Source: an uncultured Candidatus Saccharibacteria bacterium
Lineage (GTDB): Bacteria > Patescibacteriota > Minisyncoccia > Phycocordibacterales > SBAW01
Assembly: GCA_964428705.1 (NCBI GenBank)
Contig: CAYRYM010000001.1
Coordinates: forward strand, 1 to 47,872
Length of the DNA: 47,872 bases
Direction: 5' to 3'
Part shown: positions 7,136-47,872 of the stretch, piece by piece
Layout of the letters: every line of letters begins with the position of its first letter
How positions within the stretch are numbered: the stretch's first letter is position 1
Program-made: the position numbers and the translations under genes
Notes under the pieces: generated by a model
The model's input: the letters and a program-made list of their open reading frames with translations, nothing else
What the model was told of the DNA's origin: nothing
The model's database searches: none

Positions 7136-7138
7136 ACG

Positions 7139-8861: not shown

Positions 8862-8865
8862 GTTT

Positions 8866-10873: not shown

Positions 10874-10895
10874 GCAAGTATTAAGACGCTTAAGG

Positions 10896-11516: not shown

Positions 11517-11528
11517 GATGCAAATGAG

Positions 11529-12578: not shown

Positions 12579-12585
12579 CGGGCGC

Positions 12586-13851: not shown

Positions 13852-13980
13852 AATTATATACCTGTTACTCTACAGGAAATAGTAAAATCGTGCACCACCA
13901 TGAAGGCGCGCAAAGCGCGTATTGACTTTAACCTACATATATACCAAGGTTATTATGTTTAACCCGATCAAGTAACACTC

Positions 13981-14364: not shown

Positions 14365-14366
14365 CT

Positions 14367-15831: not shown

Positions 15832-15847
15832 GTTTTGTTTCGTTATA

Positions 15848-16948
15848 TTACAGTAAGTCTTGCGTAAGAGCACCTTTAAGCTCACGTAGTGTGCCGAGCA
15901 TGCTCTGCACCGACTTATCCCATGTAAATTCAGCCGCGCGGACCCTCCCCTTACGTATAAGCTCTTCTCTCAAAGAGGGGTCCGTGCATAGCTGTCGCAT
16001 GGCAGACGCGATATCCTCCGGACTATAGGGGTCAACCAGGAGTGCCGCGCCGCCCGCCACTTCCTTAAGCGCACCCTCACTCGAGGTTATTGCCGGGCAC
16101 CCCCAGTGCATGGCCTCGATAACAGGGAAGCCAAAGCCCTCGTAAAGGGTGGGGAATACGAGCGCAGCAGCGTGCTGGTAAAGGTATGCCACCTCCGCAT
16201 CAGACACACGGCCGACAAACTGTACCTGTTTGTCTGTGCACGCCTCTTTGGCAATTGATACAAGCGAGTCGTAGTACGGGCCGCTTGGTTTGCCCGTGAG
16301 CACGAGCGCGTAGGCGCTCTCGCCTTTTGCAAACGCCGCAAACCCCTTAATAATGCGCCCGACGTTTTTGCGCGGCTTAAGAGAGCCTACGTATAAAAAG
16401 TATGGCTCGGCCACAACTACCGGCGCGGGCGCAACAGTAGGTGGCGTAAAGCCGAGGTACATAACCTTAACGCGCTCCGGCGCAATGCCAAAGTGTTTTA
16501 CCACGTCGTCTTTTGTAGCCTGCGATATCGCAAGGACAACACTCGCCTTTTTGAGCGATGTCTTATGCATAAAAAAGAGTACCGGGCGAAGGGCGCGTCG
16601 CCAGATGCCCGCAGGAGGGAGCGCCAGATAGGCAAAGTCGTGTGCAAAAAGTATCGAGCGCTTAGGGCGAAAGAAAAGCGGTATAACAGGGGAAAAAAAG
16701 ATGTATATGTCGTGCGACCCAAGTTTGAGTGCGCCGGTAATCCAAAACGATGCATTGCCCAAGAACCCGTACGAAACCTTTGCGGCGCCGCTTGAAAACC
16801 GCACGTCTCGGGGGGCTCCTTTGAGATAGCAGGTAAACGAGTCGTCCGGGCAGCCGTGCATAATCCCCTCCACAAACGGAGAGAATTTGCCGGGAGAGCC
16901 GCCGAGTGTTGGGTCGCCATAGGGATGTAGCACCAAGCCTATATTCAT
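15848..16948 (-). CDS. GT4 family glycosyltransferase
   Basis: VFPTLYEGFGFPVIEAMHWGCPAITSSEGALKEVAG (EX7E motif). 366 aa. Confidence 0.8.
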   Translation of the reverse strand: MNIGLVLHPYGDPTLGGSPGKFSPFVEGIMHGCPDDSFTCYLKGAPRDVRFSSGAAKVSYGFLGNASFWITGALKLGSHDIYIFFSPVIPLFFRPKRSILFAHDFAYLALPPAGIWRRALRPVLFFMHKTSLKKASVVLAISQATKDDVVKHFGIAPERVKVMYLGFTPPTVAPAPVVVAEPYFLYVGSLKPRKNVGRIIKGFAAFAKGESAYALVLTGKPSGPYYDSLVSIAKEACTDKQVQFVGRVSDAEVAYLYQHAAALVFPTLYEGFGFPVIEAMHWGCPAITSSEGALKEVAGGAALLVDPYSPEDIASAMRQLCTDPSLREELIRKGRVRAAEFTWDKSVQSMLGTLRELKGALTQDLL

Positions 16949-17592
16949 ACCTTTGGGGTTGTGGCGACAAAGCTCAGGTTAAATGCAAATAGGTTAGGGG
17001 AGAATGCGGCCATCTTTTTATAGCGGCCAAGCCCCTGCACCTCTACAGACTCAAAATGTTTAGACAAAAGAGCGTGGAGTTCTGCAGCACTAAAGTGGTT
17101 GATATGTGTCGGGTCCTCAAGCGGCGTGTGTGCCCTGCTGCCCGACAAATAGCGGAGCCTGTTTTTAAGACTAAAGGCATTAGGCACCGAGCCCACAAAC
17201 ATACCGCCCGGCTTAAGATGCCTGGCCACATGTGCCACAACGCGGTCCGGATAAAACAGGTGCTCAAGCACCTCGCCCGCTACCACCACATCAAATGTCT
17301 CGCCCATAAGCTCATGCCAGTCGCCATGAGCGTCAAGCGCACGGGTGTCTATACCCAACGCCTCTTTGGCGCGCGCAAGGGCAACCTCATCTACATCCAC
17401 GCCCACAACTGTGTTGTCGCGGGCAAAGTATGCGGTAAGGGCGCCGTCGCGGCAGCCCATGTCGAGCACGCGCTTGCCCTTGCCTATTGCCGTAGCAAAA
17501 AAGCGCCCCCTGTCCTCCTTAAGGATACTAAACCCTTGCGGGCGGCTGGAGCCATGATGCTCCTCGTATAAGTCTTTGGTGCCAACCCCCAT
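16945..17592 (-). CDS. class I SAM-dependent methyltransferase
   Basis: RVLDMGCRDGALTAYFA...VVVAGEVLEHLFYPDRVVAHVARHLKPGGMFVGSVPN. ATGA overlap with the downstream gene and TAATG overlap with the upstream gene. Confidence 0.8.
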   Translation of the reverse strand: MGVGTKDLYEEHHGSSRPQGFSILKEDRGRFFATAIGKGKRVLDMGCRDGALTAYFARDNTVVGVDVDEVALARAKEALGIDTRALDAHGDWHELMGETFDVVVAGEVLEHLFYPDRVVAHVARHLKPGGMFVGSVPNAFSLKNRLRYLSGSRAHTPLEDPTHINHFSAAELHALLSKHFESVEVQGLGRYKKMAAFSPNLFAFNLSFVATTPKV

Positions 17593-18575
17593 TACTGAGT
17601 CATTATCTCACGAAGTCGCCCCGCGAGCACACTCAGGCTATGGCTCTCAACAATGGGCCGCAGCGTGGCCTCGGGCCGCGCCAGCATTACTTTGAGCTTC
17701 TCTGCCAGGTCGGCCTCGTCCTTAAAGTAGTACTCCTCGCCGGCCAGCTTGCGCCAATCGTCGCTCATGGCCAAAGACTGACAGCCGGAGGCGGCAGCCT
17801 CAAAGATTGTCTTGTCATACATACCTGAGGGCGAGCAATTTACAAACACCTGATGGGCACTATAAAGAGCGGGTGCCTGGTCGTTGGGTATACCTGCAAT
17901 AAATTGCACCCGACTCCCCAGCTCTTTGGCCGTCTCTTTAACACTCTCGTAGTAGCGCGCGTATTTAGGGAGAGGGGAGCCGACAAATGTTGCTGAATAC
18001 TGTATGCCCTCTTTTGTTAGCTGCTTAAGCGCGGCAACAAGCGTCTCCGGATACTTAGAGGGGGACATGCGTGCAAAAAACAATACTGAGCCGGGCGTAC
18101 GCTCGCCCGTTGGTTTAAATCTTTCTGTGTCGACACCTACCGGCATGAGCATCGTCTTCTTATACTTGGCAGTGTAGGAATGTGTGGACGTGCAGAAAAT
18201 AGTGCGGCACCACATGGCGGCAAAGTCGGTCACCACAGAGCCGGCAAAGTGGTTGCGCCACATGTACACCGGCTTGTGCAACAATACCCAAAGCCATCCG
18301 GCGCTCACTATAAACTCCTGGCCCTGATGCACAAACACGGCATCGTATTGGGCGCGTAGGCGCCAAGCCTCGCGCACCAGGCGCACGGCCCGCATAATGC
18401 GCGACTCGCCGAGCCACACCACCTGTACGTTTGGCGGCAGGCTGTAAGTACCCCTGCGCAAGCACAGCACCGTCACCTGCTCAAATTGTTTGGACAGTGC
18501 CTCTATCCATGTGAGAAAGAACCCCATAGTGGGATCATTTTGGTCGACCGCCTGGGCGCATATTAAAAGCCGCAT
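17592..18575 (-). CDS. glycosyltransferase (GT-B, GT4-like)
   Basis: MRLLICAQAVDQNDPTMGFFLTWIEALS at the N-terminus. The C-terminal FVNCSPSGMYDKTIFEAAASGCQSLAMSDD is a degenerate EX7E region. Confidence 0.7.
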   Translation of the reverse strand: MRLLICAQAVDQNDPTMGFFLTWIEALSKQFEQVTVLCLRRGTYSLPPNVQVVWLGESRIMRAVRLVREAWRLRAQYDAVFVHQGQEFIVSAGWLWVLLHKPVYMWRNHFAGSVVTDFAAMWCRTIFCTSTHSYTAKYKKTMLMPVGVDTERFKPTGERTPGSVLFFARMSPSKYPETLVAALKQLTKEGIQYSATFVGSPLPKYARYYESVKETAKELGSRVQFIAGIPNDQAPALYSAHQVFVNCSPSGMYDKTIFEAAASGCQSLAMSDDWRKLAGEEYYFKDEADLAEKLKVMLARPEATLRPIVESHSLSVLAGRLREIMTQ

Positions 18576-18576
18576 A

Positions 18577-19446
18577 TTATTTTTTGCGCAACACTCGCGT
18601 GCCGTGCACGCCCTCCAGCAGGTCGAGGTCTTTGCCTGAGTCTAGCAACAGCTCGATGTTCTTGCCAATCAGGCCTTGCATAAGTTTTACTCCGGCCTTG
18701 TTCCCTACCTTGCTTTCATAAAAGTCGGCAAGGGCTGCGATGTCCTTGATAAAGCATACCCCGCCCGCGCCGCGGCCTCTCTTAGCCCCCTTGTGGCCGC
18801 TGTCGTGGAGCACCGCCAAGTGCGACGGCCCGATGCGAGGGTCGGCCGCCACGGCCTCGCGCAACACCTCGTAGTCAGCGCCTATCGCATCGGCTACCTC
18901 GTACATCAGGTTGGCGTAGAGCACTTTCATGTACAAAAAGAAGTTGCCCGCGTACTTAATAAGCTCTGCCTCGGCTATGGGGCAGATTAGCTCGTAGGGC
19001 GCGCGGGGGAGTACCTTCATCACCTGTTTGGCCTTAGCGCGTGCGGCTGGCGTCTGCTTAACGGTACCGATGATGTTGCGCAGGGGACGCGCGGCGTCCT
19101 CCGCGGCCTGCTTGAGTACTAAAAACTCCGGCGAGTGCATCACAAAGAGCTTAGGGAACTTCTTTTGCAGTTTGGCCGTCGTGCCCGGCAGTACGGTCGA
19201 CTTTATAACCGCCGCACTCCCCGCCCCAACGAGCTTTAAGGCCGACTCGACCACAGAGTAGTCAAACCCTTTGGGTGTGGTTGGGGTTGGTACCGCGATA
19301 AACACAATGCCGCAGGATGCGATCTTGTCCTTATTGGCGCGGTACGGTTCCTCGAGCGCGTAGCGCACCACCGTGTGGCCGCGCCGCTCCATATCATCGG
19401 CGTAGCTTTTGCCGATGAATCCTTGCCCTATAAATCCTATGGTCAT
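18577..19446 (-). CDS. short UDP-glucose/GDP-mannose dehydrogenase-family protein (NAD-binding + central domain only)
   Basis: MTIGFIGQGFIGKSYADDM (Rossmann), IVFIAVPTPT, VIKSTVLPGTT. Only 289 aa, so the usual C-terminal UDP-binding domain seems absent. Confidence 0.6.
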   Translation of the reverse strand: MTIGFIGQGFIGKSYADDMERRGHTVVRYALEEPYRANKDKIASCGIVFIAVPTPTTPKGFDYSVVESALKLVGAGSAAVIKSTVLPGTTAKLQKKFPKLFVMHSPEFLVLKQAAEDAARPLRNIIGTVKQTPAARAKAKQVMKVLPRAPYELICPIAEAELIKYAGNFFLYMKVLYANLMYEVADAIGADYEVLREAVAADPRIGPSHLAVLHDSGHKGAKRGRGAGGVCFIKDIAALADFYESKVGNKAGVKLMQGLIGKNIELLLDSGKDLDLLEGVHGTRVLRKK

Positions 19447-19453
19447 CTTGATA

Positions 19454-20410
19454 TCAATTTAAAGTCTCTCTCCATCGGCGCGCCCACTCGTCCCTGCCCG
19501 GCAGAGCAAAGCGCAGGCGTCCGCGCGCACCCGCGCGCAGTGTATCAATCACGGCCCGTGCAAGTTCCGGACGGGCCACCACGGTGGCGCCCGCCTCGCG
19601 TGCCACGCCCACATCGGGCGAGACCACGGCGCAGTCCGCATACAGCGCCTCGACTATCGCGGCGCCCCAGCTCTCCTGCGTCGACGTTACCAAAAGGCAG
19701 TCTACCGCCTTGTACAGGGAAAGAACATCAGTGCGATAGCCTGCAAATACAACCTTGTTGGCCAGCCCGAGGTCACGAGAGAGCGCCTCAAGCATCGGCC
19801 GCTCTGAGCCCTCGCCTGCGACAATAAGCCCCGCACCGGGGAACTCGCGCGCCACCTCGGCAAACACGTGCAATGCCTCGGCACAGTTCTTTTCTGCCTC
19901 CAGCCGGCCGACAAACAGGACCGTCTTGCCAAATTGGGGGAACTCCTTTTTTATATCGGTCGCCGGCGCCCGGAGGATAACGTCTGTGTCCACAAACACG
20001 GGGAGCACGTCTACAAACACACGCACCCCCAGCGCCTCGGCCTGCGAGCGCACAGTGTCTGAGACGGCGCGCACAGCATCGGCATGCCACAGCACAATCT
20101 GCACAATCGCGCGCGAGAAGCCCGACAGGTAGCGCAGGTCGCCGTGCAGCTGCACCTGGAGCCGGCAGCCGCCTAGGCGCGCCGCGACAAGCCCCAAAAG
20201 CCCGCGCCACAGCGGATCCTGCGCCGTCACTACATCAAAGCGGCGCGTGAGCGCCCGGCCCAAGATAGAGAAGAGGGCCAGCGGCCGGCTCGGGCCCCAA
20301 AGTACTGCAACCAGCTCGTCTACCTGTGCCTGCTGCAGCGCAAAGCGCTCATGAGCCTCGGTGTGGGGCTCAAATATGCGCTTATCGCCGGTTATCATGA
20401 GTACCTTCAT
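19454..20410 (-). CDS. GT4 family glycosyltransferase
   Basis: VTSTQESWGAAIVEALYADCAVVSPDVGVAREAG (EX7E-like). ATGA overlap with the upstream gene. Confidence 0.75.
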   Translation of the reverse strand: MKVLMITGDKRIFEPHTEAHERFALQQAQVDELVAVLWGPSRPLALFSILGRALTRRFDVVTAQDPLWRGLLGLVAARLGGCRLQVQLHGDLRYLSGFSRAIVQIVLWHADAVRAVSDTVRSQAEALGVRVFVDVLPVFVDTDVILRAPATDIKKEFPQFGKTVLFVGRLEAEKNCAEALHVFAEVAREFPGAGLIVAGEGSERPMLEALSRDLGLANKVVFAGYRTDVLSLYKAVDCLLVTSTQESWGAAIVEALYADCAVVSPDVGVAREAGATVVARPELARAVIDTLRAGARGRLRFALPGRDEWARRWRETLN

Positions 20411-21402
20411 AGCTTGGCTACATCAAGTATCTCATCCGCAATATCCTTCCATGTGCGCACGTAGGAAAACTCTTTTATGCGCTTTACATACGCCCGATAC
20501 TTCTCATCGTCCAAGAGCTCCTCAATAGCACCTTGCATTGCGCGCTGGTCGAGCGTGTCCACAAATAAGCCCAGCCCCTGCAGACGCTCGTGCATGCCGC
20601 TGTCCAAGGGCGCGATAAACGGCTTGTTGTAGGAGAGCGCCTCGATAATGCTGTTGGAGTTAACCTCGCTTACCGACGGCACCGCAAACGCATAGGCCGT
20701 CTGCACACGCGCCGCGTGCTCGCGCGGGGGCAGGGCGCGGGTGTCGAGCGAGGCGCGACCCTCTGCCGCTTGTGCAAACGCCTGCGCAAAGGCCGGAATG
20801 TTTTTATACGTGATGCCGCGGCCGGCGGCGACAAATATCTTTTGGCCGAGAGGGGAGTCGGCTGCAGGTTTTTTGGGCGGGTACTCGTTTTCAAGCACGC
20901 GGGCCGGAGTTGTAAAGCCAAAAGCCTTCTGCCATATATCCATCTGCCACGCCGTATTAAACAAGAGTACGTCGGCGCGGCGCAACAAAGCTTTGGTCGC
21001 CCGTTGCACCATACGCTCTTTCATAGATAGCTTGCGCGGCTTGGTATAAAACTCGGACAGGCGCACCATGTCGCCCGTGCGCTCAATGTACGCCTCCCAG
21101 ACAAAGTCGCCGCCTACGCGCACCAGCAGCTTGCGGCGCAGAAGTTTGGCCGCGACAAGCGCGGGGAAGCCCACACTCCAAGTGTCCAGGGCAAGTATCG
21201 CGTCGGCGCGCATGGCTTTAGGCAAAAGCCTTACAAAGTAAACAAAGTGGCGTATCCCCCACGGCAACATTCGCTCGAGCCCCGACCAAGCGCACAGTAA
21301 AACCGGCCCGCGCCGGCCCAGCTCCTCATAAAGTTTTTGGGCATACTTGGCCGGACCGCCGACCTGGGGAGGGTAGATACCTGTGGCGATAAGGATGATC
21401 AT
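20407..21402 (-). CDS. GT-B fold glycosyltransferase-like protein, first gene of the long minus-strand operon
   Basis: MIILIATGIYPPQVGGPAKYAQKLYEEL is a GT4-type N-terminus. 331 aa. Preceded by a 393-bp intergenic region. Confidence 0.65.
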   Translation of the reverse strand: MIILIATGIYPPQVGGPAKYAQKLYEELGRRGPVLLCAWSGLERMLPWGIRHFVYFVRLLPKAMRADAILALDTWSVGFPALVAAKLLRRKLLVRVGGDFVWEAYIERTGDMVRLSEFYTKPRKLSMKERMVQRATKALLRRADVLLFNTAWQMDIWQKAFGFTTPARVLENEYPPKKPAADSPLGQKIFVAAGRGITYKNIPAFAQAFAQAAEGRASLDTRALPPREHAARVQTAYAFAVPSVSEVNSNSIIEALSYNKPFIAPLDSGMHERLQGLGLFVDTLDQRAMQGAIEELLDDEKYRAYVKRIKEFSYVRTWKDIADEILDVAKL

Positions 21403-26629: not shown

Positions 26630-28072
26630 CTACTCTATTGTAAACTCATCTTCTGATCCCCCGGTTACCGGCTTGCGCCGCACCACCATGACGCTCGCAA
26701 CGCCTAGGCCTACTATGCCGCCCAGGCCCGCAAACGCGGTCCACAAAGGCAGCACAGCGTTACTGCTTGCTGCCGACGCCGCAAGTGACGGTGGCGCCGG
26801 CTCTTCTGACATACCGGATGTTGATGATGCTTCAGGTGCCGCGGCGGCCGGTACATCTATATAGACTTCCGGAATAATTAAAGGAGCATCTGTTGCTGCG
26901 GGCCCAGCCGGCACAACTGCTGGTAATGCTTCAGATTTTGCGGCCGGCGCCGAGTATACGACTTGTGTGCCGTCCGGGTAGTAAAGTTTTGCGTCAGTAG
27001 CCTCAAATCCGAGCGTAGCCGCGGATATATTTATGGCCGAGCCCTCGAGCACCACCGAGTGCTCCGGGAGCACAAAGGTACTGTCGCCCTGCTTAACTAC
27101 CCACAACGAGAGGTCTAAGTCGCGACCGGAGTTGTTTTGTACGGACACGCCGCCCTGCGGAAGTGCCACAAGCGCAACCGAGGCCGGCTCTGCCGTTACC
27201 GTTATACGGCTTGTGGTGCGCAGGCTTGTGTTGGTTATTGTCAGCTGGACAGCGTACGTACCCGGGTAGCTAAAGTGATGCATCACCCACGGGCCCTCGG
27301 CAGTCGTGCCGTCGCCAAAGTTCCAGTAAAACTTGGCGTAGTTTATAACGTCCCTGTCGCGATCATAAGCGGTGGCGACAAACTTGGTATCGGCGCCGAC
27401 GATAACCACTCTGTCGCTGCCGGCCGATGCAAACACCTGCGGCAGGGGCGGCGCCACATAGCCGGGGTTAGAGGTTGATTTGCCCGAGGAGCCGGAGCCG
27501 CTCTCCTGCGCGGGCGGCGTGTAGCTCTCCGTCGCATTGTCGGCGCCCGGCGTGGGCAAGGCTTGGAGCCACGTGCTCGATGCCATCTGCAAACTTGTGC
27601 CATTGTCACTGCCTCCCTGGCTTGCGGTGTAAGTCACCGAGTCTAGTGTGCTGCCCGAGCCGTCTGCCAGCGAGACCGTTGTGCCGGTGTTGTTTAAAGT
27701 AAGAGATGCCTTGGCAACCGAGTAGCTGCCGGTGTACTCGCCCATAAATACAGACGGGTCGCTTGTAAGCACTAAATATCCGTGTGCGGGGATTGTCAGC
27801 GAGCCGCGCCCTACCCCGCCTTGAGGGTCCGTTATGGTGTGGTTGGAGCTATCAACTATGCGCCACGAGCCGGAGCCCGAGCCGCCCACCAACATGACAT
27901 CCTCTGAGCCGGAGTTATACAGCTCGACCCACTCGCGCCCGGCATCCGTGCCGGCGGGGTTGTACATAACCTCATTAATAGAGACCGCAGCATGGGCAGC
28001 CGCGGGCAATGCGCACGAAAATATAAAAATAAAGGAGAGTTTAACTGCTTGGCTCGCGATGCTTCTTGTCAT
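26630..28072 (-). CDS. surface protein with lamin-tail domain, PKD domain and C-terminal membrane anchor
   Basis: Signal peptide MTRSIASQAVKLSFIFIFSCALPAAAHA. LTD: VSINEVMYNPAGTDAGREWVELYNSG. PKD: FYWNFGDGTTAEGPWVMHHFSYPGTYAVQLTITN. C-terminal helix LPLWTAFAGLGGIVGLGVASVMVV followed by RRK. Confidence 0.75.
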   Translation of the reverse strand: MTRSIASQAVKLSFIFIFSCALPAAAHAAVSINEVMYNPAGTDAGREWVELYNSGSEDVMLVGGSGSGSWRIVDSSNHTITDPQGGVGRGSLTIPAHGYLVLTSDPSVFMGEYTGSYSVAKASLTLNNTGTTVSLADGSGSTLDSVTYTASQGGSDNGTSLQMASSTWLQALPTPGADNATESYTPPAQESGSGSSGKSTSNPGYVAPPLPQVFASAGSDRVVIVGADTKFVATAYDRDRDVINYAKFYWNFGDGTTAEGPWVMHHFSYPGTYAVQLTITNTSLRTTSRITVTAEPASVALVALPQGGVSVQNNSGRDLDLSLWVVKQGDSTFVLPEHSVVLEGSAINISAATLGFEATDAKLYYPDGTQVVYSAPAAKSEALPAVVPAGPAATDAPLIIPEVYIDVPAAAAPEASSTSGMSEEPAPPSLAASAASSNAVLPLWTAFAGLGGIVGLGVASVMVVRRKPVTGGSEDEFTIE

Positions 28073-29972
28073 GGTGCGACCCCTCTATATCCGGGTCGAC
28101 AGAGAGCATAGCATGTAGAGTCTCTTTGGGAAGGGAGGCGGGTTTTGACGAGCTTTTTGCGACTTTGTCCAGAGTATCCTTGAGGTCCGGGGAATGTTGT
28201 GGCGTTGAGTGTGCGTGCGGTTCCGCTTTAGGCGCCCCTGCCTTTGGAGCCTCGGGCTTTTTGGCGGTTACGGCCGCAAGGGCATCGCGCAGGCTTGTTG
28301 AGCCCTCGAGTGCGGGCTTTTCTACCTCCGGCTCAAGACGGGGCTTGGGCGGGGGTGCGGCGCGCACCGGTTGGCGGCGCGGCGCCGGAGCCTTTTCAAT
28401 ATGCGTATGGTTGTGGACATGCACCTGCGGTGCTGGCTGAGGCGCAGGCGCTTCTACCCTGACCGCTTGTATGATAGTGGGAGCAGGAGTAGGTGCCGGA
28501 GCGGGCACCGGCACAACAACGGTGGTGTGATGCGTAGGAGCCGGCGCGGGAGCTGCACGCGCTGGCGCCGGTGCCGCTGGGCGCGATGCAGCCGTCTTTG
28601 TCGCCGTATTGCCGTACTTGGGCTTAGGAGGCTCGACAACAAGCGGCTCCACGCTCTGCCACTTCTCTATCGCAGCCTCGACCTCGGGCCTAGGCTTGGC
28701 AAACTGGTCGCGCGAGCTCTGCAAAACTTTTTGCGTGTTGTCCTCTGGGGTGGCGTCAAACGGCGGCAGGGTTGTGGCGCTAAAGGGCGGGCTGCCCACG
28801 CCGTCTATCATAAGAGTCAGGTAAATCTGGGCAAACCCGAGGTTAACCAGGTCGGTCGCCTCAAACTGCGGCGCAAACACCGTCTCTAATGTCTCGGCGT
28901 CAAACGGCCCCACGCGGAAGGCCACCGTCGTGCCCACGTTGCCAAACACCGCATCGCGCACCTCCTCCTCCATCTGCTCGACATACTGGTGCGCGATGAT
29001 GAGGTTAAGCTTGTACTTGCGCGCCTCCGACAGGATGTCGGAGAATGACTCGTTGGCAAAGTTCTGGAACTCGTCCACGTAAAAGTAAAAGTTGGGCAGC
29101 GTCTGCATATTGGCGGAGCTGACATCGGCGCGGCTCATAGCCGCCAGGTATATCTTGGTGACCAGCATGGAGCCCAAGAGCGTCGCGTTGACCTCGCCTA
29201 CCCTGCCCTTGGAGAGGTTCATGATCAGTATCTTTTTTTGGTCCATGATCTCGCGGATATCAAACGAGCTCTTGGGCTGGCCCACAATGTTGCGTATAAG
29301 CGGGTTGGAGGTAAACTGGCCTATTTTGTTTTGTATGGCCGGGGTCGCGTCTTGCGTGTAGCGGTCGGTGTAGTTGGCAAACTCATCGACCCAGAAGCTT
29401 TTAACTATGGGGTCCTTAACGTTCTCGACCACCTTCTTGCGGAATGCTTTGTTGATGAGCATGCGGTTAACGTCGAGCAGCGTCGCACCCTCGTACTCAA
29501 GCAAAGCCAGCAATGTGTTGGAGAGTATGTACTCCATACGGGCTGACCATGCATCTACCCAAATCTTGCGGAAGGCCGAGAGCAGGCCCGAGACAACCAG
29601 GTGGCGCTTGTCGTACCCCACGTCCTCCATCACGTTAAAGGCCACAGGATACTCCATGTCAAACGGCGCAAAGTACACCACGTCTTTAATGCGATGCGCC
29701 GGCACGTACTCCATAATCCGGTCGGCGGTCGAGCCGTGCGGGTCTATAAACGCCATGCCCTCGCCGTTGCGGATGTCCTGTATGGCCATGTTCTCCAGCA
29801 AGGTGGACTTGCCCATGCCGGTCTTGCCGATGATGTACATGTGGCGCGCGCGGTCGCGGCGCTTGATGCCAAACGGCAGGGGTTTCCCGCGCGAGTTGGT
29901 CTCGGCAAAGTACGTTATCTTATTTGCGTCCTCAAGCATTGCTTTAATTGTACCACTGCCCGCTATAGACAC
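28041..29972 (-). CDS. VirD4/TraG/TraD-like P-loop ATPase (type IV coupling-protein family) with a Pro/Ala-rich tail
   Basis: Walker A IIGKTGMGKSTLLENM. Walker B FYFYVDEFQNF. SEARKYKLNLIIAHQYVEQM...GNVGTTVAFRV is typical of the TraG-D C-terminal region. No N-terminal TM helices. The last ~200 aa are low-complexity P/A. GTG start at 29972 (first ATG at 29939). Confidence 0.7.
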   Translation of the reverse strand: MSIAGSGTIKAMLEDANKITYFAETNSRGKPLPFGIKRRDRARHMYIIGKTGMGKSTLLENMAIQDIRNGEGMAFIDPHGSTADRIMEYVPAHRIKDVVYFAPFDMEYPVAFNVMEDVGYDKRHLVVSGLLSAFRKIWVDAWSARMEYILSNTLLALLEYEGATLLDVNRMLINKAFRKKVVENVKDPIVKSFWVDEFANYTDRYTQDATPAIQNKIGQFTSNPLIRNIVGQPKSSFDIREIMDQKKILIMNLSKGRVGEVNATLLGSMLVTKIYLAAMSRADVSSANMQTLPNFYFYVDEFQNFANESFSDILSEARKYKLNLIIAHQYVEQMEEEVRDAVFGNVGTTVAFRVGPFDAETLETVFAPQFEATDLVNLGFAQIYLTLMIDGVGSPPFSATTLPPFDATPEDNTQKVLQSSRDQFAKPRPEVEAAIEKWQSVEPLVVEPPKPKYGNTATKTAASRPAAPAPARAAPAPAPTHHTTVVVPVPAPAPTPAPTIIQAVRVEAPAPQPAPQVHVHNHTHIEKAPAPRRQPVRAAPPPKPRLEPEVEKPALEGSTSLRDALAAVTAKKPEAPKAGAPKAEPHAHSTPQHSPDLKDTLDKVAKSSSKPASLPKETLHAMLSVDPDIEGSHHDKKHREPSS

Positions 29973-40875: not shown

Positions 40876-40899
40876 AAAAAGCGGCTATGGCCGCTTTTT
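40876..40899 (-). terminator. intrinsic terminator of the fibre/DUF2207 operon
   Basis: AAAAAGCGGC-TATG-GCCGCTTTTT. The stop codon TAG (40885-40887) lies at the stem-loop junction. On the minus strand the stem is followed by TTTTT. Confidence 0.65.
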
Positions 40900-41679
40900 G
40901 AATTTAAATACAAGAGCGCCCGCGGCAACGCACACTAACAAAAGCGCTGCCACCAGCGGCACTATACCGTAGCTCAGCACCAGGGTTGTTATAAAAAAGC
41001 CGCGCACGTGCGGGTGGACCACGCCCTTTGGCCAGCGTGCCTCAAACGAGACTCCCCCGCCCGGCTGTATGTCCTCTATCTCAAAGCGCAGCGTGCGGGG
41101 GTCGGGGTGCAGCACGCGGCCCGGTGCGGAGGTAAGCTTGCCGTCAATCTCTGCGGCGGCAGGCAGCACGACATCAACGCTGCTTGAGGCAACAGACACC
41201 GCGTAGCGCGAAAACAGCGACCACGCCAGCGCGTCATGGTCCGCCTCAAACGCGACCACGCCACGCAGGGTGTAGCGCAGCACCCAGGTCTTTGTCGTGT
41301 CCGCGGCGTCGTAGTACCACTGCGCCTTAAAGTACCCGTCATCGTTTATCCACGCATAGGTGCCGTAATATTGCTTATCGTTGGGCAGGTCGGGAAAGTT
41401 TTTAATCTGGCGCAGCACCTCGCCGGTGTCGGCGTCCACAACCTCAACATTGCTCACCGCGGCAGAGCCCACCGATACGCCGCGCCATAGCGAGTGGTAC
41501 GTTCCCTCGTAGCTGATTGTGATGCGCTCCTCTACCTTAACTGAGCTGTCGCGTTGTATCTCGTAGCGCGCGCTAATGTTTTGGTACTCGTAGGAAATCG
41601 CATCAGGCGATGTTGCCGCCAGGGCCGCAGGGGCGCTACTCATCGCCCCCAACATAAGCAGTGCTGCAGCAAGTCTCAT
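40885..41679 (-). CDS. DUF2207-like membrane protein (signal peptide, beta-rich ectodomain, C-terminal TM region)
   Basis: [21 protein letters not shown] signal. [30 protein letters not shown] resembles the DUF2207 N-terminal pattern. C-terminal [31 protein letters not shown]. The ATG overlaps the upstream TGA (ATGA). Confidence 0.6.
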
Positions 41680-44600
41680 AGAGTTTCAACTGCCTCACCG
41701 GCCTCCGGTGCAACCGGGAAGGCCGCCGGCTCGGGCTCGGGCGCAGGTTGCTCTGCTTGTGGCTCCGGCTCGGGTTCCCCCTCCGGTTCCGGTGCAGGCT
41801 CCAGCACAGGAGTCGGCTCAGGTTCCGGCTCTGGAGCAGGTTCAGGAGTAGGAGTTGTTGACGTCGAGTTGTCTGTACCACCCTCCCCTACCACCTCGGG
41901 CGTTGATGTTGCCTCATTATCCGCAACCTCTTGCGTGGTTGTTGCCTGCACACCGGCATCCGCATCTTCTTCAAACGGATTGTCGAACTCTTCTGTAGTT
42001 GTAGCGGCGTCCTCAGGCACGAGTGGTGTCGAGGTTGCCGTGCACTCGCCACTTAAGTACACCAGCTCGCCGGCCTGCACCTGCACGCAGTACGGCTCGT
42101 GCGTCTGCGTGTCGTACAGGGTGATGCCCGCCGGCTGCTCGCTGCTGCCCACGGTAAACTGCGAGGCTATTAAGTTTTTAATAAGCGTAAACTCCTGGGA
42201 TATATAGACGCCCAAGTCGGCGAGCTTGGCTACAAACGCGCCAAACAGCGCATCCACAAACTGCGCGGTCGAGCTTGCGACCGCGGCGCTTGTCGAGGCG
42301 ATAGAGCCTGTTGTGCTTGCAATGCGGCCGCTAAGCGCGCCGAACATCGCGCCCACAAAGTCCACAGGCATGGTGGAGGTGCCGACGTCGAGACCAAGCA
42401 GGCCTTGGGCAATGGAGTTTATAGACACCCCCGCCTGCAGGTCGAGGAATATCATGACCGTAGCCTGGCTACCGCCGCTGTATGCCTCGAGCGCAATACC
42501 AACCGACGGCTCGAACTGCGTTGCGCGCCGGCCGACACCCGGAGTTTCCGAGAGCGTGATGCGGTCGCCAATCTGGATTGCACCGCCCGTAAGGTTGACG
42601 CGCACCGGCACGCGGCCCGAGAGCGCCACAGGCCTGCTACCTGCCGCGTTGTCCGGGTTAAGCCCCAAGACCATACCCGGCGCGGTCGAGATAACGCCCG
42701 CCAATGGCGAGGTGTCTGTGCGCGCAGCGCGCTTAACGTGTATGTCGCTCAGGACATCAAACGAGACTATCTCGCCCGGGCTAAGCGTTGCGTCAGTAGT
42801 GGGGTATGTCTCGGCCAAGTCGGCGCCCGGGGTGGCATAGGTGTACTCGTACACCACCACAAACCCCCCGCCTCCGCCGTTGCCGCCCGGGCCGCCGTAT
42901 GATGAGCCGCCGCAGAAATCTTCACTACAATCTTCTCCTTCCTCATACTGATATCCGCCTTTGCCGCCAAACGCCCCGTGAGAGCCGCCCGCAGCGCCAC
43001 CGCCACCGCCTCCTCCGCCGGCACCCGCATCTACCTGTTCTACTCCGACACTTCTGCCGCCGCCGCTGCCTCCACTCATACCAATAGTCCCGCCACCTCC
43101 GCCTGCTCCGCCGCCTGCTCCGGACACGCTATACAAGCCATAGGCGCCCGCACCACCATGTCCGCCAGAGATACCGGCCGTACCCGCGCCGCCGCCGCCG
43201 CCACCACCTCCGCCGCCGTTTAGGTTGGAGCCGTTGGTCCCCGCTACACCATCACCGCCGGCACCGCCATTGCCGCCCCCGACACCCATGGCGCCACCAC
43301 CACCGCCGCCACCGCCGCCTCCCTGGCCGTTGCTTGTTGTGCCCCCGCTGCCGCCGTTGCCGCCGTTGAAGCCGCCTCCGCCTCCTCCGCCACCCGGGTC
43401 GTTGGATGAGGAGGAACCTCCCGCGCCGCCATTGCCGCCGTTGGTCGTGCCGCCGGCAGTGCCGTTAGTGCCGCCGTTGGTGCCGGTACCCAGGGCACCG
43501 CCCGAGAGCCCGGCGCCGCCGCCGCCACCACCTCCACCAGAACTTGTTGCGCCACTGCCACCGGCCGCACCAGCGCCGCCGGCCGAGCCCGTCGCAGCAC
43601 TCCCGGTAGCACCCGCACCGCTGCTGCCGGCACCACCTCCGCCGCCGCCAGCACCTCCGGTGCTGTTTGAGGCACCGGCAGGCCCCCCGTTGTTGCCGTC
43701 TCCATCAGGGTCGTCGGCCCCGCCGCCGCCCGATCCTCCCGCCATGCCGGCTGCAGACGCGCCGTCACCGGAGTCTGTGTTGGTAGCGCCCGCGCCCGAG
43801 CCACCACCGCCTCCGCCGCCCGTAGTGCCGGAGCCAGCGGCGCCATCGCCCTCGCCGCCGATGGTGGCGCCGTTTTGGTCGTTGCCCGATGCGGCTCCGC
43901 CGCCGCCGCCCGCGCCGCCGCTGGTGCCGGAGGCAGCAGCGGCGGCGCCACCCGTTGAGATAGTGGTGTTGCTGGTCTCGTCCCATCCGTCTCCTCCGCC
44001 ACCGCCGCCTCCTCCACCGCCCGACGAGCCGGATGCGCTTGCCCCTACTGTGCCATTGCCTCCTGCACCCCGGGTGGTGCTAAAGCTTGTGCCCTCGTCG
44101 CCGTCCATTCCGCCTCCGCCTCCGCCGCCGCCACCCACGCCAACTACTACCGCCTCGGTGCCGCTTATGCTTGCGGCCTGCACCACCTTTTGCGAGTAGC
44201 CGCCCGCACCGCCGCCGCAGGTATACGTGTTGTCGCTAAAACCATCGCTGGTTGTGCGCGTAGACGTGGAGGGAGACGCACCATGAGCAAATGTTGTCGC
44301 AAAAGGCGCGAGCGAGTCATGCAATAGTTGCTGATTAACGGCCGAGTCGAGAACTATCATGTTGCGCTTAAAGCCGCTCTGGCCGGCCAAATTAACATCG
44401 CCGCTGCTGCCCGTGCCGCCGCTGCCGGGGACGCAGTAGGTTGTCGAGGCATTGGTGCCGGCGCCTCCGCCCGCCGCCGAGAGGTGCGCGCCAAACGACG
44501 ACGCTGTGCCGGCCGCGCCGTCGCCGCCGATGCGCATTGCGGATTCGCCGTCACCCGGGTTGGCGTCAAAGCCGCCCGTCATGCCGCTGCCGCCTCCGCC

Positions 44601-47600
44601 GCCGCCCCATGTCTCGACAACAACGTAGGCCAGGTCGGAGGGCTTGGTGTATGTCTGGTCACTCGTGTACGTCCGTATCGCGGTGAGCTTGGCCACCTGG
44701 CCAATGCACGTGCCGCCTACGCTAAAACAACCGCCGGTCAGATTGATGCCGTTTGCCGCAGTCGAGGTTGCCGAGGTTGAGGTCATGTTAAACGTTGTGG
44801 CCTCGATGCCGCCGGCAAAGCTTGAGGTGCCGGCGCCCTGCACGGCAAGCGTACCGGTTGTTGTTGCGCCGCCCGATATTGTGAGCCCGCCGGTCTGCGT
44901 ACCATCGCCTATTGTTGATGACGCAAATGCGGTCAGCCCCGCATTAAACTGCGTCAGCGTGGAGGTCGAGTTGCCGGTGCCCGCAAACGGGTATGCCGCG
45001 GCAACCTGGGCCGGCGTGGCGTAGTCGCTGCCCGCCACCGCTGCCACAACCAAGCCGTCTGTCGAAGTTTTAAGCAGGTTGCCGGACGCAATGCCGGAGA
45101 TGACAAGGTCGGTGGTCGAGGCGCTGCCAAAGTACCCGATGCCCGAGACCGTAAGCGCGGTGGTCGATGCGTACGATATGGTCGCACTGCCGGCAGTCAG
45201 TCCGCCGTTAAACGCAATTGATGTGGTGGTGGCGTTAGACGGGAACGGGTAGGCAAAGGAGGAGCCGCCGCACGACTGCGCCGACACAAGGCCCGAGGAG
45301 TTGGTCGTAAGGCAGTCGCCGGCGCCTGCGCCCAAGCCTGATATGACAAGTGCGGTTGTGGAGGCGGTGCCGTTAACGTCGAGCTTCGCTGTCGGGGCGT
45401 TGGTGCCGATGCCGACATTGCCGCCTTTTTGAAGTGTGAGTCTGTCCGCAGTATCCCAAAACCGCATGTCTTCTCCATTCAAATACGTGAGCCATTCTAC
45501 GGAGTTGTTCGTCGTGCTGTAGAGCTCAAAGAGCGTAGAATCCGAAGCTCCGCTAAATCTGGCCGGGCCCGTCACATTGAGTGCAGCTCCGGATGCGGGT
45601 GCGCCGCCAATACCCACACCATTGCCGTTTATTGTCATCTTCAACCCTCCCGTGTCGTTTGTCTCATTGTACGATGATGCCGCATAAAAATACTGCACCG
45701 TAGCATCAGGCACATTCCAGCCCCCACCGCCAAAGTACAGATAACGCCCCGCACCATCGTCCCAGCCAGAAAGAGCAGTGAACGGCTCGTTTGCCTTGTT
45801 ATAGCGTCCGATGGCGTACAGCCCGCCGTTTGAGGCAGTCGCACCGCTCGTGTCGCCAAGTACAAATGCCGTGTAAATATTTGAAGTATTGAAAGCGTTC
45901 GTCTGGCGCGTCACGTTCAAGGCTCCGGCTACTTGGAGTTTGCCAAGGGGGCTCGCCGTCCCAACCCCGACATTGCCCGCAAAGTAGGCCTGGCCGGTCG
46001 TTGTCGCACCTCCCGATATGGTGAGGCCGGTCGCGGCACCGCCGGCACCGATGGTCGAGCTGGCATACGCGGTCAGCCCCGCGTTGAACGCGAGCAAGGT
46101 TGTGGTGGCGTTAGACGGGAACGGGTAGGCAAATGATGAGCCTCCCGATGGCCACGCCGACTGGCAGTCGCCGGATATGCAGATGGTGGTTGCGGACAGC
46201 GCCGTTGTGGACGCGTACGGGAATGTGGAGGCGGCTGTGGTGGTCGCAGTAAAGTATGCGCCCACCACCTCGCCTGCTACAGAGAGTTTTGCGTACGGCG
46301 AGGTGGTGCCAACGCCTACATTGCCGTCGCTGGCTATGCGCAGGCGCTCGCCGGTCGCAACATCCGTGCCGGTATAAAAGCGGATATCCCCAAAAGCAGA
46401 GGAAAGATCGATTCCGTTAAGGCCGGCGAGTATAACCCGGTTCTGAAGCAGCGTCTCAAAATAATTCGTGCCGGCAAGCACAAGGGCTCCGCCAACGTCA
46501 TCGTCATTCTCAAGATAAATTGATGCGGCAGCTGTGGACCCGCTGTTAAAGTTCCTGACATACAGCCCGGAGGGGCTGTCGGCATTGGTGGAAACGTCGA
46601 GTGCGGCCCCAGGACTCATGGTACCGATGCCGACGTTGCTCGCAAAGTAAGCTGTGCCCGTGGTGGTCGCACCACCGGAGATGGTGAGGCCGGTCGCGGC
46701 ACCGCCGGCACCGATGGTCGAGCTGGCATACGCGGTCAGCCCCGCGTTGAACGCGAGCAAGGTTGTGGTGGCGTTAGACGGGAACGGATACCCTGCAATG
46801 CTCGGAGTGCCGGTGAGTTGACTGTACGGCAGTGACAGGTTTGGCAGTGTGATGATCGAGGCGATTGATGAGGTGCCTGCCAGCTGGGTGATAAAGCGTG
46901 GGTCAAACAACGAGTTGAAGGTAGAGGTGTAGACGCCGTCGGTGACGGTGCCTGCGTTGCCGCTTATGTCTCCTGTCACGTTGGCTACAATGCCGCCGCT
47001 AAAGGTGATCTGCGTTGAGGTGGCATTAGACGGGAACGGGTAGGCAAATGATGAGCCTCCCGATGGCCACGCCGACTGGCAGTCGCCGGATATGCAGATG
47101 GTGGTTGCGGACAGCGCCGTTGTGGACGCGTACGGGAATGTGGAGGCGGCTGTGGTCGTGGCCGTAAAGTACGCCGCAACTGCCTCGCCTACTACCGACA
47201 GTTTTGCATACGGCGAGGTGGTGCCTATGCCTACATTGCCGGCTGCAGTTATCCTTACCCGCTCTGCCTCCGAACCGTTGTCCGTATAAAACGTTATAAC
47301 GCCGTTGAGCTGGCGGTTGTCAAAGCGGAACTCATCGGCTCGCGCACCTATTTGCATGCCGTCTGTGTCGTTTTGGTTAATGTTCCGGAATTTGAAAACC
47401 GCATTACTGGAATCATTGGACTCGAACAACGCAACAACAGAACCCACCGGCTCGTACACGCGCAGCGCCATGCTCGAAGGATAGCCTCCTATGCCCACCT
47501 TGCCGCCAACGTACGCATCAAGCGTAGTTGTCGCGTTGCCGGATATAACAAGGCCGGCGCTACCGTTGCCGATTGTCGATGACGCATACGCAGTAAGTCC

Positions 47601-47872
47601 GCCGTTGAACTGTGTCAGGGTCGAGGTGGAGTTGCCGGTGCCTGCAAACGGGTAGCCTGCGATAGACGGCGCACCACTCAGCTGTGAGTACGGTAGCGAC
47701 AGGTTAGGCAAGGTGATGATGCTCGAGATCGAGGAGGTGCCCGCAAGCTGGGTGATGAAGCGAGGGTCAAACAATGAGTTGAAGGTAGAGGTGTAGACGC
47801 CATCGGTGACGGTGCCTGCGTTGCCTGTGACAGAAGCGACAATGGCGTTAGAGAAGGTGTTGGTGCCCGAGA
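41676..47872 (-). CDS. giant tail-fibre-like surface protein, 5' end beyond the window (>2,060 codons in the window)
   Basis: The listed ORF 41676..47774 starts at a TTG. Hand translation of 47775-47872 stays open (SGTNTFSNAIVASVTGNAGTVTDGVYTSTFNS) and repeats an internal segment, so the gene continues past the edge. It contains recurrent GNVGIGTTSPYAKLSV and YPFPSNATTT motifs, a polyglycine domain and an ADLAETY...GVISTAPGMVLG block. TGA stop at 41676. Confidence 0.85.
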   Translation of the reverse strand, partial: SGTNTFSNAIVASVTGNAGTVTDGVYTSTFNSLFDPRFITQLAGTSSISSIITLPNLSLPYSQLSGAPSIAGYPFAGTGNSTSTLTQFNGGLTAYASSTIGNGSAGLVISGNATTTLDAYVGGKVGIGGYPSSMALRVYEPVGSVVALFESNDSSNAVFKFRNINQNDTDGMQIGARADEFRFDNRQLNGVITFYTDNGSEAERVRITAAGNVGIGTTSPYAKLSVVGEAVAAYFTATTTAASTFPYASTTALSATTICISGDCQSAWPSGGSSFAYPFPSNATSTQITFSGGIVANVTGDISGNAGTVTDGVYTSTFNSLFDPRFITQLAGTSSIASIITLPNLSLPYSQLTGTPSIAGYPFPSNATTTLLAFNAGLTAYASSTIGAGGAATGLTISGGATTTGTAYFASNVGIGTMSPGAALDVSTNADSPSGLYVRNFNSGSTAAASIYLENDDDVGGALVLAGTNYFETLLQNRVILAGLNGIDLSSAFGDIRFYTGTDVATGERLRIASDGNVGVGTTSPYAKLSVAGEVVGAYFTATTTAASTFPYASTTALSATTICISGDCQSAWPSGGSSFAYPFPSNATTTLLAFNAGLTAYASSTIGAGGAATGLTISGGATTTGQAYFAGNVGVGTASPLGKLQVAGALNVTRQTNAFNTSNIYTAFVLGDTSGATASNGGLYAIGRYNKANEPFTALSGWDDGAGRYLYFGGGGWNVPDATVQYFYAASSYNETNDTGGLKMTINGNGVGIGGAPASGAALNVTGPARFSGASDSTLFELYSTTNNSVEWLTYLNGEDMRFWDTADRLTLQKGGNVGIGTNAPTAKLDVNGTASTTALVISGLGAGAGDCLTTNSSGLVSAQSCGGSSFAYPFPSNATTTSIAFNGGLTAGSATISYASTTALTVSGIGYFGSASTTDLVISGIASGNLLKTSTDGLVVAAVAGSDYATPAQVAAAYPFAGTGNSTSTLTQFNAGLTAFASSTIGDGTQTGGLTISGGATTTGTLAVQGAGTSSFAGGIEATTFNMTSTSATSTAANGINLTGGCFSVGGTCIGQVAKLTAIRTYTSDQTYTKPSDLAYVVVETWGGGGGGSGMTGGFDANPGDGESAMRIGGDGAAGTASSFGAHLSAAGGGAGTNASTTYCVPGSGGTGSSGDVNLAGQSGFKRNMIVLDSAVNQQLLHDSLAPFATTFAHGASPSTSTRTTSDGFSDNTYTCGGGAGGYSQKVVQAASISGTEAVVVGVGGGGGGGGGMDGDEGTSFSTTRGAGGNGTVGASASGSSGGGGGGGGGGDGWDETSNTTISTGGAAAAASGTSGGAGGGGGAASGNDQNGATIGGEGDGAAGSGTTGGGGGGGSGAGATNTDSGDGASAAGMAGGSGGGGADDPDGDGNNGGPAGASNSTGGAGGGGGGAGSSGAGATGSAATGSAGGAGAAGGSGATSSGGGGGGGGAGLSGGALGTGTNGGTNGTAGGTTNGGNGGAGGSSSSNDPGGGGGGGGFNGGNGGSGGTTSNGQGGGGGGGGGGAMGVGGGNGGAGGDGVAGTNGSNLNGGGGGGGGGGAGTAGISGGHGGAGAYGLYSVSGAGGGAGGGGGTIGMSGGSGGGRSVGVEQVDAGAGGGGGGGGAAGGSHGAFGGKGGYQYEEGEDCSEDFCGGSSYGGPGGNGGGGGFVVVYEYTYATPGADLAETYPTTDATLSPGEIVSFDVLSDIHVKRAARTDTSPLAGVISTAPGMVLGLNPDNAAGSRPVALSGRVPVRVNLTGGAIQIGDRITLSETPGVGRRATQFEPSVGIALEAYSGGSQATVMIFLDLQAGVSINSIAQGLLGLDVGTSTMPVDFVGAMFGALSGRIASTTGSIASTSAAVASSTAQFVDALFGAFVAKLADLGVYISQEFTLIKNLIASQFTVGSSEQPAGITLYDTQTHEPYCVQVQAGELVYLSGECTATSTPLVPEDAATTTEEFDNPFEEDADAGVQATTTQEVADNEATSTPEVVGEGGTDNSTSTTPTPEPAPEPEPEPTPVLEPAPEPEGEPEPEPQAEQPAPEPEPAAFPVAPEAGEAVETL
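42864..44609 (-). repeat. GGN-codon low-complexity tract (polyglycine coding region)
   Basis: The plus strand is dominated by GCC/ACC/CCG triplets. It encodes at least seven uninterrupted runs of 8-10 Gly plus many shorter ones. It also creates the spurious antisense poly-Pro ORF 43225..44199. Confidence 0.9.
46018..46124. repeat. 107-bp exact intragenic direct repeat, copy 1 (partner 46681..46787)
   Basis: Base-by-base hand alignment is identical. Offset 663 bp (221 codons). Confidence 0.9.
46111..46241. repeat. 131-bp exact intragenic direct repeat, copy 1 (partner 47026..47156)
   Basis: Base-by-base hand alignment is identical. Offset 915 bp (305 codons). The identical N-termini of spurious plus ORFs 46177.. 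and 47092.. (MQMVVADSAVVDAYGNVEAAVVVAVKYA) also reflect it. Confidence 0.9.
46681..46787. repeat. 107-bp exact intragenic direct repeat, copy 2 (partner 46018..46124)
   Basis: Identical to copy 1. It diverges immediately after GGGAACGG. Confidence 0.9.
46816..46961. repeat. imperfect ~146-bp intragenic repeat (partner 47680..47825, offset 864 bp)
   Basis: Hand alignment shows scattered mismatches. The longest exact blocks are GAGTTGAAGGTAGAGGTGTAGACGCC (26 nt) and TCGGTGACGGTGCCTGCGTTGCC (23 nt). Confidence 0.7.
47026..47156. repeat. 131-bp exact intragenic direct repeat, copy 2 (partner 46111..46241)
   Basis: Identical to copy 1. Confidence 0.9.

Follow-up and report, generated by a model that had tools for sequence, protein, structure and literature searches.

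A hyper-expanded glycine-rich domain in a giant chromosomal protein of an uncultured Candidatus Saccharibacteria bacterium may form a large polyglycine-II lattice

Polyglycine-II (PGII) bundles are a rare fold held together by backbone hydrogen bonds alone. Those solved contain between 6 and 14 helices, and the 14 of ALK form the largest solved lattice (PMC12227593). In the tail fiber gp24 of cyanophage Pam3, 12 glycine-rich motifs build a lattice of four layers whose distal tip varies, resembling S16 gp38 and ALK (PMC9608196), and Pam3 together with gp33 of mycobacteriophage Bxb1 has been classed among the polyproline-II (PPII) helical bundles (PMC13243192). AlphaFold models of the PGRS domains of mycobacterial PE_PGRS proteins predict PGII "sails" of 7 to 54 helices (PMC10216338). 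Here, we describe a glycine-rich domain encoded by a giant gene on the minus strand of a 47,872-nucleotide (nt) stretch of DNA, hereafter the window, from an uncultured Candidatus Saccharibacteria bacterium (GCA_964428705.1, contig CAYRYM010000001.1, positions 1-47,872, forward strand). Family assignment and insertion anatomy, taken jointly from sequence comparisons, make it very probable that this segment is a genuine domain of the class termed tumor necrosis factor (TNF)-like/glycine-rich. That it is a hyper-expanded member of the class, whose expansion forms a large PGII lattice showing variable binding loops, we find somewhat easier to believe than to doubt.

The open reading frame (ORF) of the giant protein extends over 41676..>47872 and remains open up to the window edge, so its N-terminus lies outside the window. 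The ORF listing places a TTG start at 47774 (41676-47774, 2,032 amino acids [aa]), from which residues are numbered here, while the open frame gives a protein of at least 2,064 aa. The original prediction had described strand motifs bracketing polyglycine, and these were found at both ends: the opening motif TYTKPSDLAYVVVETWGGGGGGSG begins at aa 1041 (window 44654), and the last residue of the closing motif GGNGGGGGFVVVYEYTY is aa 1646 (window 42837). The coordinates proposed for the segment held apart from the upper bound, 44714, which corresponds to aa 1021 and precedes the opening motif by 20 residues. Gly makes up 40.6% of the 606 residues of aa 1041-1646 (window 42837-44654). The at least seven runs of 8 to 10 Gly that had been counted are exactly seven, unbroken and of lengths 9, 10, 8, 8, 10, 10 and 8; there are 14 runs of four or more Gly in total, and the stretches between them are rich in Ala, Ser, Thr, Asn and Asp.

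Local GC reaches 74% at the glycine-rich segment, short-read assemblies often break there, and four of the contigs carrying the gene (L003, L004, L006 and L008) end within it, as would be expected if GC-rich low-complexity DNA had been mis-assembled or were non-coding in this frame. Against an artefact of assembly or annotation, more than 2,064 codons follow one another in the ORF with no interruption, the ratio of nonsynonymous to synonymous divergence (dN/dS) is far below 1, and two other independent assemblies, L005 (JGI) and L012 (ENA), span the whole domain with an identical 456 aa from GGYSQK to YEYTY. The same organization recurs in the independent assemblies L005, L012, L003, L004, L006 and L008, and we give the artefact practically no credence. 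A plus-strand poly-Pro ORF at 43225-44199 is the mirror image of the Gly runs and nothing more.

When 1.84 billion cluster representatives were searched exhaustively with phmmer, 17 proteins were recovered, of which one is a fragment of a near-identical protein and the others carry short glycine-rich domains that match the flanks of the window domain. At 606-609 aa (609 from opening to closing motif), against 144-215 aa in 15 measurable relatives, the window domain is about three times their size, which agrees with the inflation to about 590 residues noted beforehand. It also lies outside the roughly 150-230 residues typical of PF21722 (Gly_rich_2; gathering threshold 24.3 bits, profile length 226). 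Once residues 1217-1624 are taken out, the remainder can be aligned over its full length with six relatives of 165-211 aa, to which it is 37-45% identical. The opening motif I-R-x-Y-T-x-x-x-T-W/Y-T-K-P...YVxVExxGGGGGG is present, as IRTYTSDQTYTKPSDLAYVVVETWGGGGGG aligns with all relatives, and the closing GFVVVYEYTY matches the G-x-V-x-V-x-E-Y strand kept in all of them. The N-terminal core comprises the strands IRTYT, TYTKP and AYVVVETW, the first Gly run, SSFGAHLSA, GDVNLAG, a variable loop and GGGAGGYSQKVVQA-TEAVVVGV.

Half of the ten relatives scanned (P0002, P0003, P0005, P0012 and P0016; phmmer E 1e-4 to 9e-7) pass PF21722, with 37-59 bits over profile positions 5-224. These canonical members and the query-type alignment matched each other in hhalign at 99.9% probability (E 6.8e-33, 97 columns). 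The profile built from the canonical members reached Pam3 gp24 over the whole TNF-like/glycine-rich region (7yfw, E 4.6e-7) as well as Bxb1 gp33 (E 0.0074), both of which were reached in the PDB by this profile only. Additionally, an AlphaFold2 (AF2) model of relative P0019, with a predicted local distance difference test (pLDDT) score of 69, had matches at E <= 0.001 to 70 models of viral proteins, the best at 3.8e-10, mostly named "glycine-rich domain-containing protein" or tail fiber. Other searches were less productive: a masked, shortened query recovered two proteins only, scans of viral contigs gave no relative in one set and only three loci in another, and tblastn against a phage collection gave no match, to which the default low-complexity filter may have contributed. 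Two small canonical glycine-rich-domain proteins of the same superfamily (228-252 aa), which appear stand-alone and fiber-tip-like, are encoded on 43-55 kb metagenome contigs (L009, 5902-6588; L010, 5833-6591).

The window domain is therefore linked to Pam3 gp24 (PDB 7YFW/7YPX) by a homology chain from query-type proteins through canonical members to gp24. Both interleave beta-strands with Gly loops and close with a G-x-V-x-V-x-E/Q-Y/F strand, and in both the loop tips vary on a scaffold of Gly (PMC9608196). The Pam3 domain, however, is about 175 aa long with 12 Gly-rich motifs and 31% Gly, and forms the C-terminal tip of a trimeric phage fiber, whereas the window domain has 606-609 aa, 40% Gly, a 420-aa insertion in its last loop and a relocated YSxK...TVG hairpin, and belongs to a cellular, apparently membrane-anchored fiber in which another module follows. 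The Bxb1 gp33 "tail wing brush" (PDB 9D93 chain Q) is alike in its family-profile match and as the top Foldseek PDB match of both AF2 models, those of the window domain and of P0019, but it is a small (~230-267 aa) phage accessory protein with weak matches and no hyper-expansion.

In the alignment with orthologues and short relatives, the additional length falls into one clean insertion that separates strand TEAVVVGV from the closing strand FVVVYEYTY. This insertion spans about 420 aa (approximately aa 1214-1637) where the relatives have 10-18 residues, equivalent to one Gly hairpin, and it contains 49.5% Gly and 12 pure runs of 5 to 10 Gly. Counting as a Gly-rich segment any stretch of at least 6 aa in which every 3-residue window holds at least two Gly, there are 19 in the expansion, 22 in the whole domain and 0-6 in the short relatives; the same rule finds 4 in Pam3, despite its 12 structural motifs. 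GGX-type motifs exceed the shuffled expectation (p ~0.004). Pure Gly runs dominate, and (GGX)n motifs of two or more repeats number only five. A collagen reading of the expansion was rejected. Among the 1.84 billion representatives, no other protein matched the expansion in the phmmer search, whose reach composition filters limit. The Gly runs are written in mixed GGC, GGT and GGA codons, none of which occurs more than five times consecutively. Tandem Repeats Finder (TRF) detected no long-period tandem repeat and there is no long direct repeat in the expansion, which is therefore not a recent duplication array.

The connectors are rich in Ala, Ser, Thr, Asn and Asp and markedly acidic (25 D/E against 3 K/R, net charge about -22). 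This acidity, together with a few GGxGxD matches, would suit another ordered fold, namely a Ca2+-binding beta-roll of the repeats-in-toxin (RTX) kind or a beta-solenoid. Yet only five GGxGxD matches occur, two of them full nonapeptides and none in a tandem 9-residue register. Pure runs of 8 to 10 Gly are incompatible with RTX repeats, the periodicity is 3 rather than 9, and TRF found no long-period repeat; such a fold is thus very improbable.

Comparison with L005, a full-length orthologue, shows how strongly the expansion is constrained. Over 419 codons (aa 1214-1632) there are no indels, with 91% aa identity, a synonymous divergence (dS) of 0.70 and a dN/dS of 0.085, and in the first half (207 codons, again with no indels) identity rises to 97%, connectors included, at dS 0.62 and dN/dS 0.038. 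The core and pre-domain residues (aa 1009-1213, 205 codons; 86% identity, dS 0.68, dN/dS 0.15) and the C-terminal module (254 codons; 85-86% identity, dS 0.81, dN/dS 0.16) frame the expansion, on which constraint is consequently tighter (0.085 vs. 0.15-0.16). Of its Gly positions, 97% are conserved. Among blocks of 50 codons, divergence from L005 is greatest in the core loop of aa 1109-1158 (62% aa identity, dN 0.28, dS 1.03), which by its divergence becomes a second candidate specificity determinant.

A PGII or PPII helix imposes a three-residue repeat. Outside the pure runs, the autocorrelation of Gly in the expansion peaks at lag 3 only, with a value of 0.25 in the window (z 4.7) and 0.21 in the second allele class, type B, of L006 (z 3.7), while the shaft of the same protein has no peak (-0.04, z -1.3); z scores were taken against within-connector shuffles.

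It is important to consider these observations together with the structure prediction. AF2 was run on aa 1021-1660, with an alignment depth of 1 over the expansion. The N-terminal core strands were predicted with pLDDT >90, and the closing strand, some 420 residues downstream, was also predicted as a strand (DSSP, model residues 618-626; block-mean pLDDT 68-81). Confidence was low at model residues 118-160, the core variable loop, and in the expansion (model residues 223-613) pLDDT fell to 27-46 without regular secondary structure. The latter could be read as a disordered, flexible Gly/Ser/Ala loop serving as an entropic bristle or spacer, with only a core of about 200 aa folded, a view that also fits the low complexity of the region (half Gly, with A/S/T/N/D connectors) and the failure of any profile or PDB sequence match to cover it. 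Disordered low-complexity loops, however, usually evolve fast and with indels. The expansion has lost or gained no codon in 419 at a dS of 0.70, its dN/dS is below that of the adjacent folded domains, and the number and register of its runs are kept in a second allele at saturated dS. The three-residue periodicity of Gly likewise speaks against disorder, and a low pLDDT is expected at alignment depth 1, so the value is uninformative about order. Constraint and periodicity, as read from the sequences, argue that the expansion is not a freely evolving disordered linker, and we judge the disordered loop unlikely, though it deserves serious attention. The case also cautions that low-complexity, low-pLDDT regions can rank among the most constrained parts of a protein.

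The type B version of the expansion is found on L006 and L008, which share their metagenome of origin with L005, and on L004, where it occupies the same locus upstream of the DUF2207 gene. It is collinear with the window expansion: the length from GGYSQK to YEYTY is exactly 456 aa in three type A alleles and 440 aa in two of type B, and all five have 13 runs of four or more Gly. Between the window and the type B allele of L006, the 19 Gly-rich segments are 83% identical without gaps, whereas identity drops to 39-44% in the connectors, where all 24 gap columns are found; conservation is 89% at Gly positions and 37% at the others. Indels are confined to the long connectors. The idea that short connectors would be better conserved than long ones was dropped, as they are not (39% vs. 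44% identity). Against type B, dS exceeds 2 (saturated) in the expansion and is 0.77 in the adjacent C-terminal module. Furthermore, the window and L006 are 94% identical in the C-terminal module and 65% in the expansion, while for the window and L005 the corresponding values are 85-86% and 91%. Because these identities conflict between pairs, old expansion alleles have been shuffled relative to their flanks. By analogy with known recognition modules, the allele classes look like specificity cassettes. A diversity-generating retroelement was considered as the source of loop variation and set aside, since the window holds no template/variable repeat pair and all its long repeats lie in the shaft.

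Conserved Gly motifs alternating with segments that are hypervariable between alleles are also a feature of gp38 of S16 and T-even phages (PDB 6F45). Recognition at a fiber end, taken as the working model, would be a further likeness. With 10 PGII helices in a three-layer sandwich, gp38 is small and made as a protein of its own, docking on gp37, unlike the window protein, where about 19-22 Gly-rich segments lie within one giant polypeptide, and no sequence similarity was found between the two.

The same conservation and periodicity would also suit an ordered, PGII-like expansion that binds no ligand and has a structural role as a rigid plate or strut, for example a spacer, a surface for self-association or lattice formation, or a flat face turned toward ice or minerals, like that of springtail antifreeze proteins. 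In support of this, constraint is strongest in the Gly scaffold and in the first half of the expansion, connectors included (97%), unlike a fast-evolving receptor-binding tip. On the other hand, there is a second allele class with diverged connectors, shuffled with respect to its flanks, a pattern typical of recognition modules, gp38 and Pam3 gp24 among them (PMC9608196), and the relatives of the domain are fiber-tip proteins. We regard a purely structural plate as improbable, more so than a disordered loop.

Several results weigh against a lattice of binding loops in a Gly_rich_2-type domain and temper our preference for it. A Pfam scan of the whole giant protein gave no Gly_rich_2 match. The whole domain did not match PF21722, a shortened construct without the expansion and part of the core scored 14.5 bits, and the N-flank alone reached 17.0 bits (E 0.006, profile positions 4-34 of 226), below the cut-off. 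PF12810, the ALK/LTK type that had been proposed, gave no match at E <= 10 for the window protein, and PDB sequence and profile searches with the window protein and the query-type alignment returned nothing relevant, ALK, LTK and gp38 included; ALK and LTK chains were likewise absent from the PDB matches of the canonical-member profile. That part of the original assignment is not supported, while membership in a glycine-rich-domain family stands through the PF21722 relatives and the hhalign match. The order of conserved elements also differs from that of canonical PF21722 members, in which a GGGGGYSxK...TVG hairpin directly follows the first Gly run. In the window protein and in P0006, P0007, P0008, P0010, P0015 and P0019, the hairpin (GGGAGGYSxK...TExVTVG) comes late, after SSFGxHLSA...GDxNL, and hhalign scores it as an insertion relative to the canonical template. 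None of the five late-hairpin relatives scanned passes PF21722 (best 19.6 bits, the others without a Gly_rich_2 match); Pfam thus under-scores the window protein and these relatives because the hairpin is relocated.

Besides the low AF2 confidence over the expansion described above, the best Foldseek hits against the PDB were not significant (E 0.099 for the window model, 0.016 for the P0019 model), even though Bxb1 gp33, Pam3, ALK and LTK occupied the top ranks for both. Positive selection on the loops cannot be shown because dS against type B is saturated. Finally, the domain had been thought to sit exactly where the receptor-binding region of a fiber would be, which is not supported: the protein is bacterial and chromosomal rather than from a phage, and the domain is subterminal, with about 390 residues beyond the closing strand, so that it is not the extreme tip of the polypeptide.

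With ALK and LTK (7LS0, 7N00, 7NX1; PF12810), the window domain would share an architecture of TNF-like strands and polyglycine hairpins, which in those receptors form a ligand-binding PGII lattice. No sequence or profile similarity was detected, Foldseek gave E values of 0.3-3, and ALK is a metazoan receptor kinase ectodomain; any relation is at most architectural or very remote.

According to the reading we prefer, a domain class found at the tips of phage and giant-virus fibers occurs here in a chromosomally encoded bacterial fiber, between the shaft and a C-terminal module. Its beta-strand core is ordinary, with the last Gly hairpin swapped for about 420 residues, in which the Gly-rich segments would adopt PGII helices and pack through backbone hydrogen bonds into a multilayer lattice. 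The pure-Gly runs would then provide the interior helices and the GGX-type runs the peripheral ones. Such a lattice would be a rigid scaffold for many variable, acidic S/T/N/D-rich connecting loops that could bind a ligand on another cell or surface, and strains might exchange or diversify the loop set while retaining the Gly scaffold. We infer the PGII fold with fair confidence; a binding function for the loops, suggested by analogy, is a reasonable conjecture that falls a little short of probable. A bolder version, in which a possibly episymbiotic, Patescibacteria-like bacterium carries a phage fiber-tip domain on its own membrane-anchored giant fiber as the largest multilayer PGII lattice known, a near-crystalline scaffold with loop sets swapped by recombination, is tentative and rather unlikely to hold in full. 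Its details, of 20 or more helices with about 12 all-Gly interior ones (ALK has 14), some 18 exchangeable loops and changed partner binding, are just as tentative.

The size of such a lattice had been called unprecedented, which is too strong, as predicted PGII sandwiches of PE_PGRS proteins reach 54 helices (PMC10216338); the term can be kept only for solved structures and for this domain class. The PGRS domains are alike in being large, Gly-dominated, predicted PGII regions of bacterial surface proteins, with strict Gly, variable loops and a GGX 3-residue periodicity. They are, however, two-layer sandwiches built from arrays of GGA/GGN triplets, often polymorphic for indels, and are joined to a PE domain, whereas the window domain has long pure runs of 8 to 10 Gly, no indels between orthologues and an insertion placed inside a TNF-like domain; the Pfam scan found neither a PE domain nor a GRPLI motif in the window protein. 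The kind of domain is therefore known, and what is new, within the reach of the searches, is the tripling through a single loop, the long pure-Gly runs and the context of a cellular fiber. If true, the lattice would have more helices than that of ALK, which with 14 holds the record among solved structures (PMC12227593). An array of 420 residues with twelve pure G5-G10 runs and no indel at dS 0.7 would test the limits of lattice growth and whether interior all-Gly helices can build multilayer crystals within a protein, and it would give protein designers a large loop-displaying scaffold that is neither alpha nor beta. The recruitment of a phage receptor-binding-type domain to a cellular surface fiber would also bear on partner recognition by uncultured small-genome bacteria.

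The features of the giant gene and its downstream neighbor are listed in Table 1.

Table 1. Coordinates of the giant gene's features and of the adjoining gene in the window.
Feature	Position	Strand	Basis or remark
Fiber shaft, A/S/T/G-rich with internal repeats	44694..47872	-	continues past window edge
Glycine-rich domain N-terminal core, aa 1028-1213	44136..44693	-	relatives 37-45% identical; AF2 strands pLDDT >90
Non-Gly variable loop in core, aa 1109-1158	44301..44450	-	divergence from L005
Hyper-Gly expansion, aa 1214-1637	42864..44135	-	single insertion in alignment with relatives
Closing beta-strand FVVVYEYTY, aa 1638-1646	42837..42863	-	conserved in all relatives; AF2/DSSP strand
Conserved C-terminal module, aa 1647-1900	42075..42836	-	common to giant Saccharibacteria proteins
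Acidic T/P/E-rich C-terminal tail with PEPEPEP repeats, and stop codon	41676..42074	-	translation
DUF2207 membrane-protein gene	40885..41679	-	Pfam DUF2207, E 4e-13

The complete architecture can be read from the full-length orthologue L005 (1,926 aa), whose synteny is shared by the independent ENA assembly L012. It opens with two HTH_17 repeats and a hydrophobic helix, continues with a repetitive A/S/T-rich shaft that leads into the glycine-rich domain, and ends with a conserved module of some 250 aa followed by a tail that is acidic and P/E-rich. The shaft is longer in the window protein than in the orthologue (at least 2,064 aa vs. 1,926 aa in total) and contains five direct repeats (D1-D5, 44900-47825) of 93-268 nt, 72-88% identical and spaced about 660-915 nt apart. 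The HTH_17 repeats, of DNA-binding type (PF12728, E 4.7e-10), were seen in L005 (669-1250) and at the N-terminus of L012, and constitute an unusual cytoplasmic head on a surface protein of about 2,000 aa. After them, L005 has a lone hydrophobic helix, VRRIWAPLALGLVFVFGSAAIGASS. From this membrane helix, identified by eye in the orthologue sequence, the fiber is apparently anchored in the membrane at its N-terminus.

The C-terminal module, with the motif ADLAETYP...ALSGRVPVRV...GGAIQIGD, is 44-46% identical to L001 and L002, giant Saccharibacteria proteins without a glycine-rich domain, and such proteins carrying this module were the only relatives in a species-genome collection, which suggests a Patescibacteria (CPR)-like origin. 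Its match to Phage_cement_2 is weak (E 0.011-0.019), and a PDB search with the module gave no relative. The tail that follows matches Trypan_PARP by composition only; a conserved stretch containing Cys precedes it.

The DUF2207 gene begins within the end of the giant gene, its start and the giant gene's stop overlapping by 4 nt, and its position is kept in L003, L004, L005 and L012, which suggests, from gene order, that the two may be co-expressed and functionally linked. The surrounding genes are ordinary bacterial chromosomal genes and include, besides DUF2207, those for a fasciclin protein, an SPFH/Band 7 protein, a Mur ligase, MurI, MurA and MurB, together with many glycosyltransferases, a TraG/TrwB-like ATPase and tRNA-Leu; the giant protein is therefore not a phage fiber. 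The TrwB/TraG-like coupling ATPase (28041-29972, minus strand) adjoins a secreted-looking protein with lamin-tail and PKD domains (26630-28072). The glycosyltransferase genes form a long run on the minus strand (6002-21402; GT1, GT4 and GT9) that includes a C-methyltransferase gene and resembles a surface-glycan cluster, and a GMC-oxidoreductase-like gene lies at 3525-6035.

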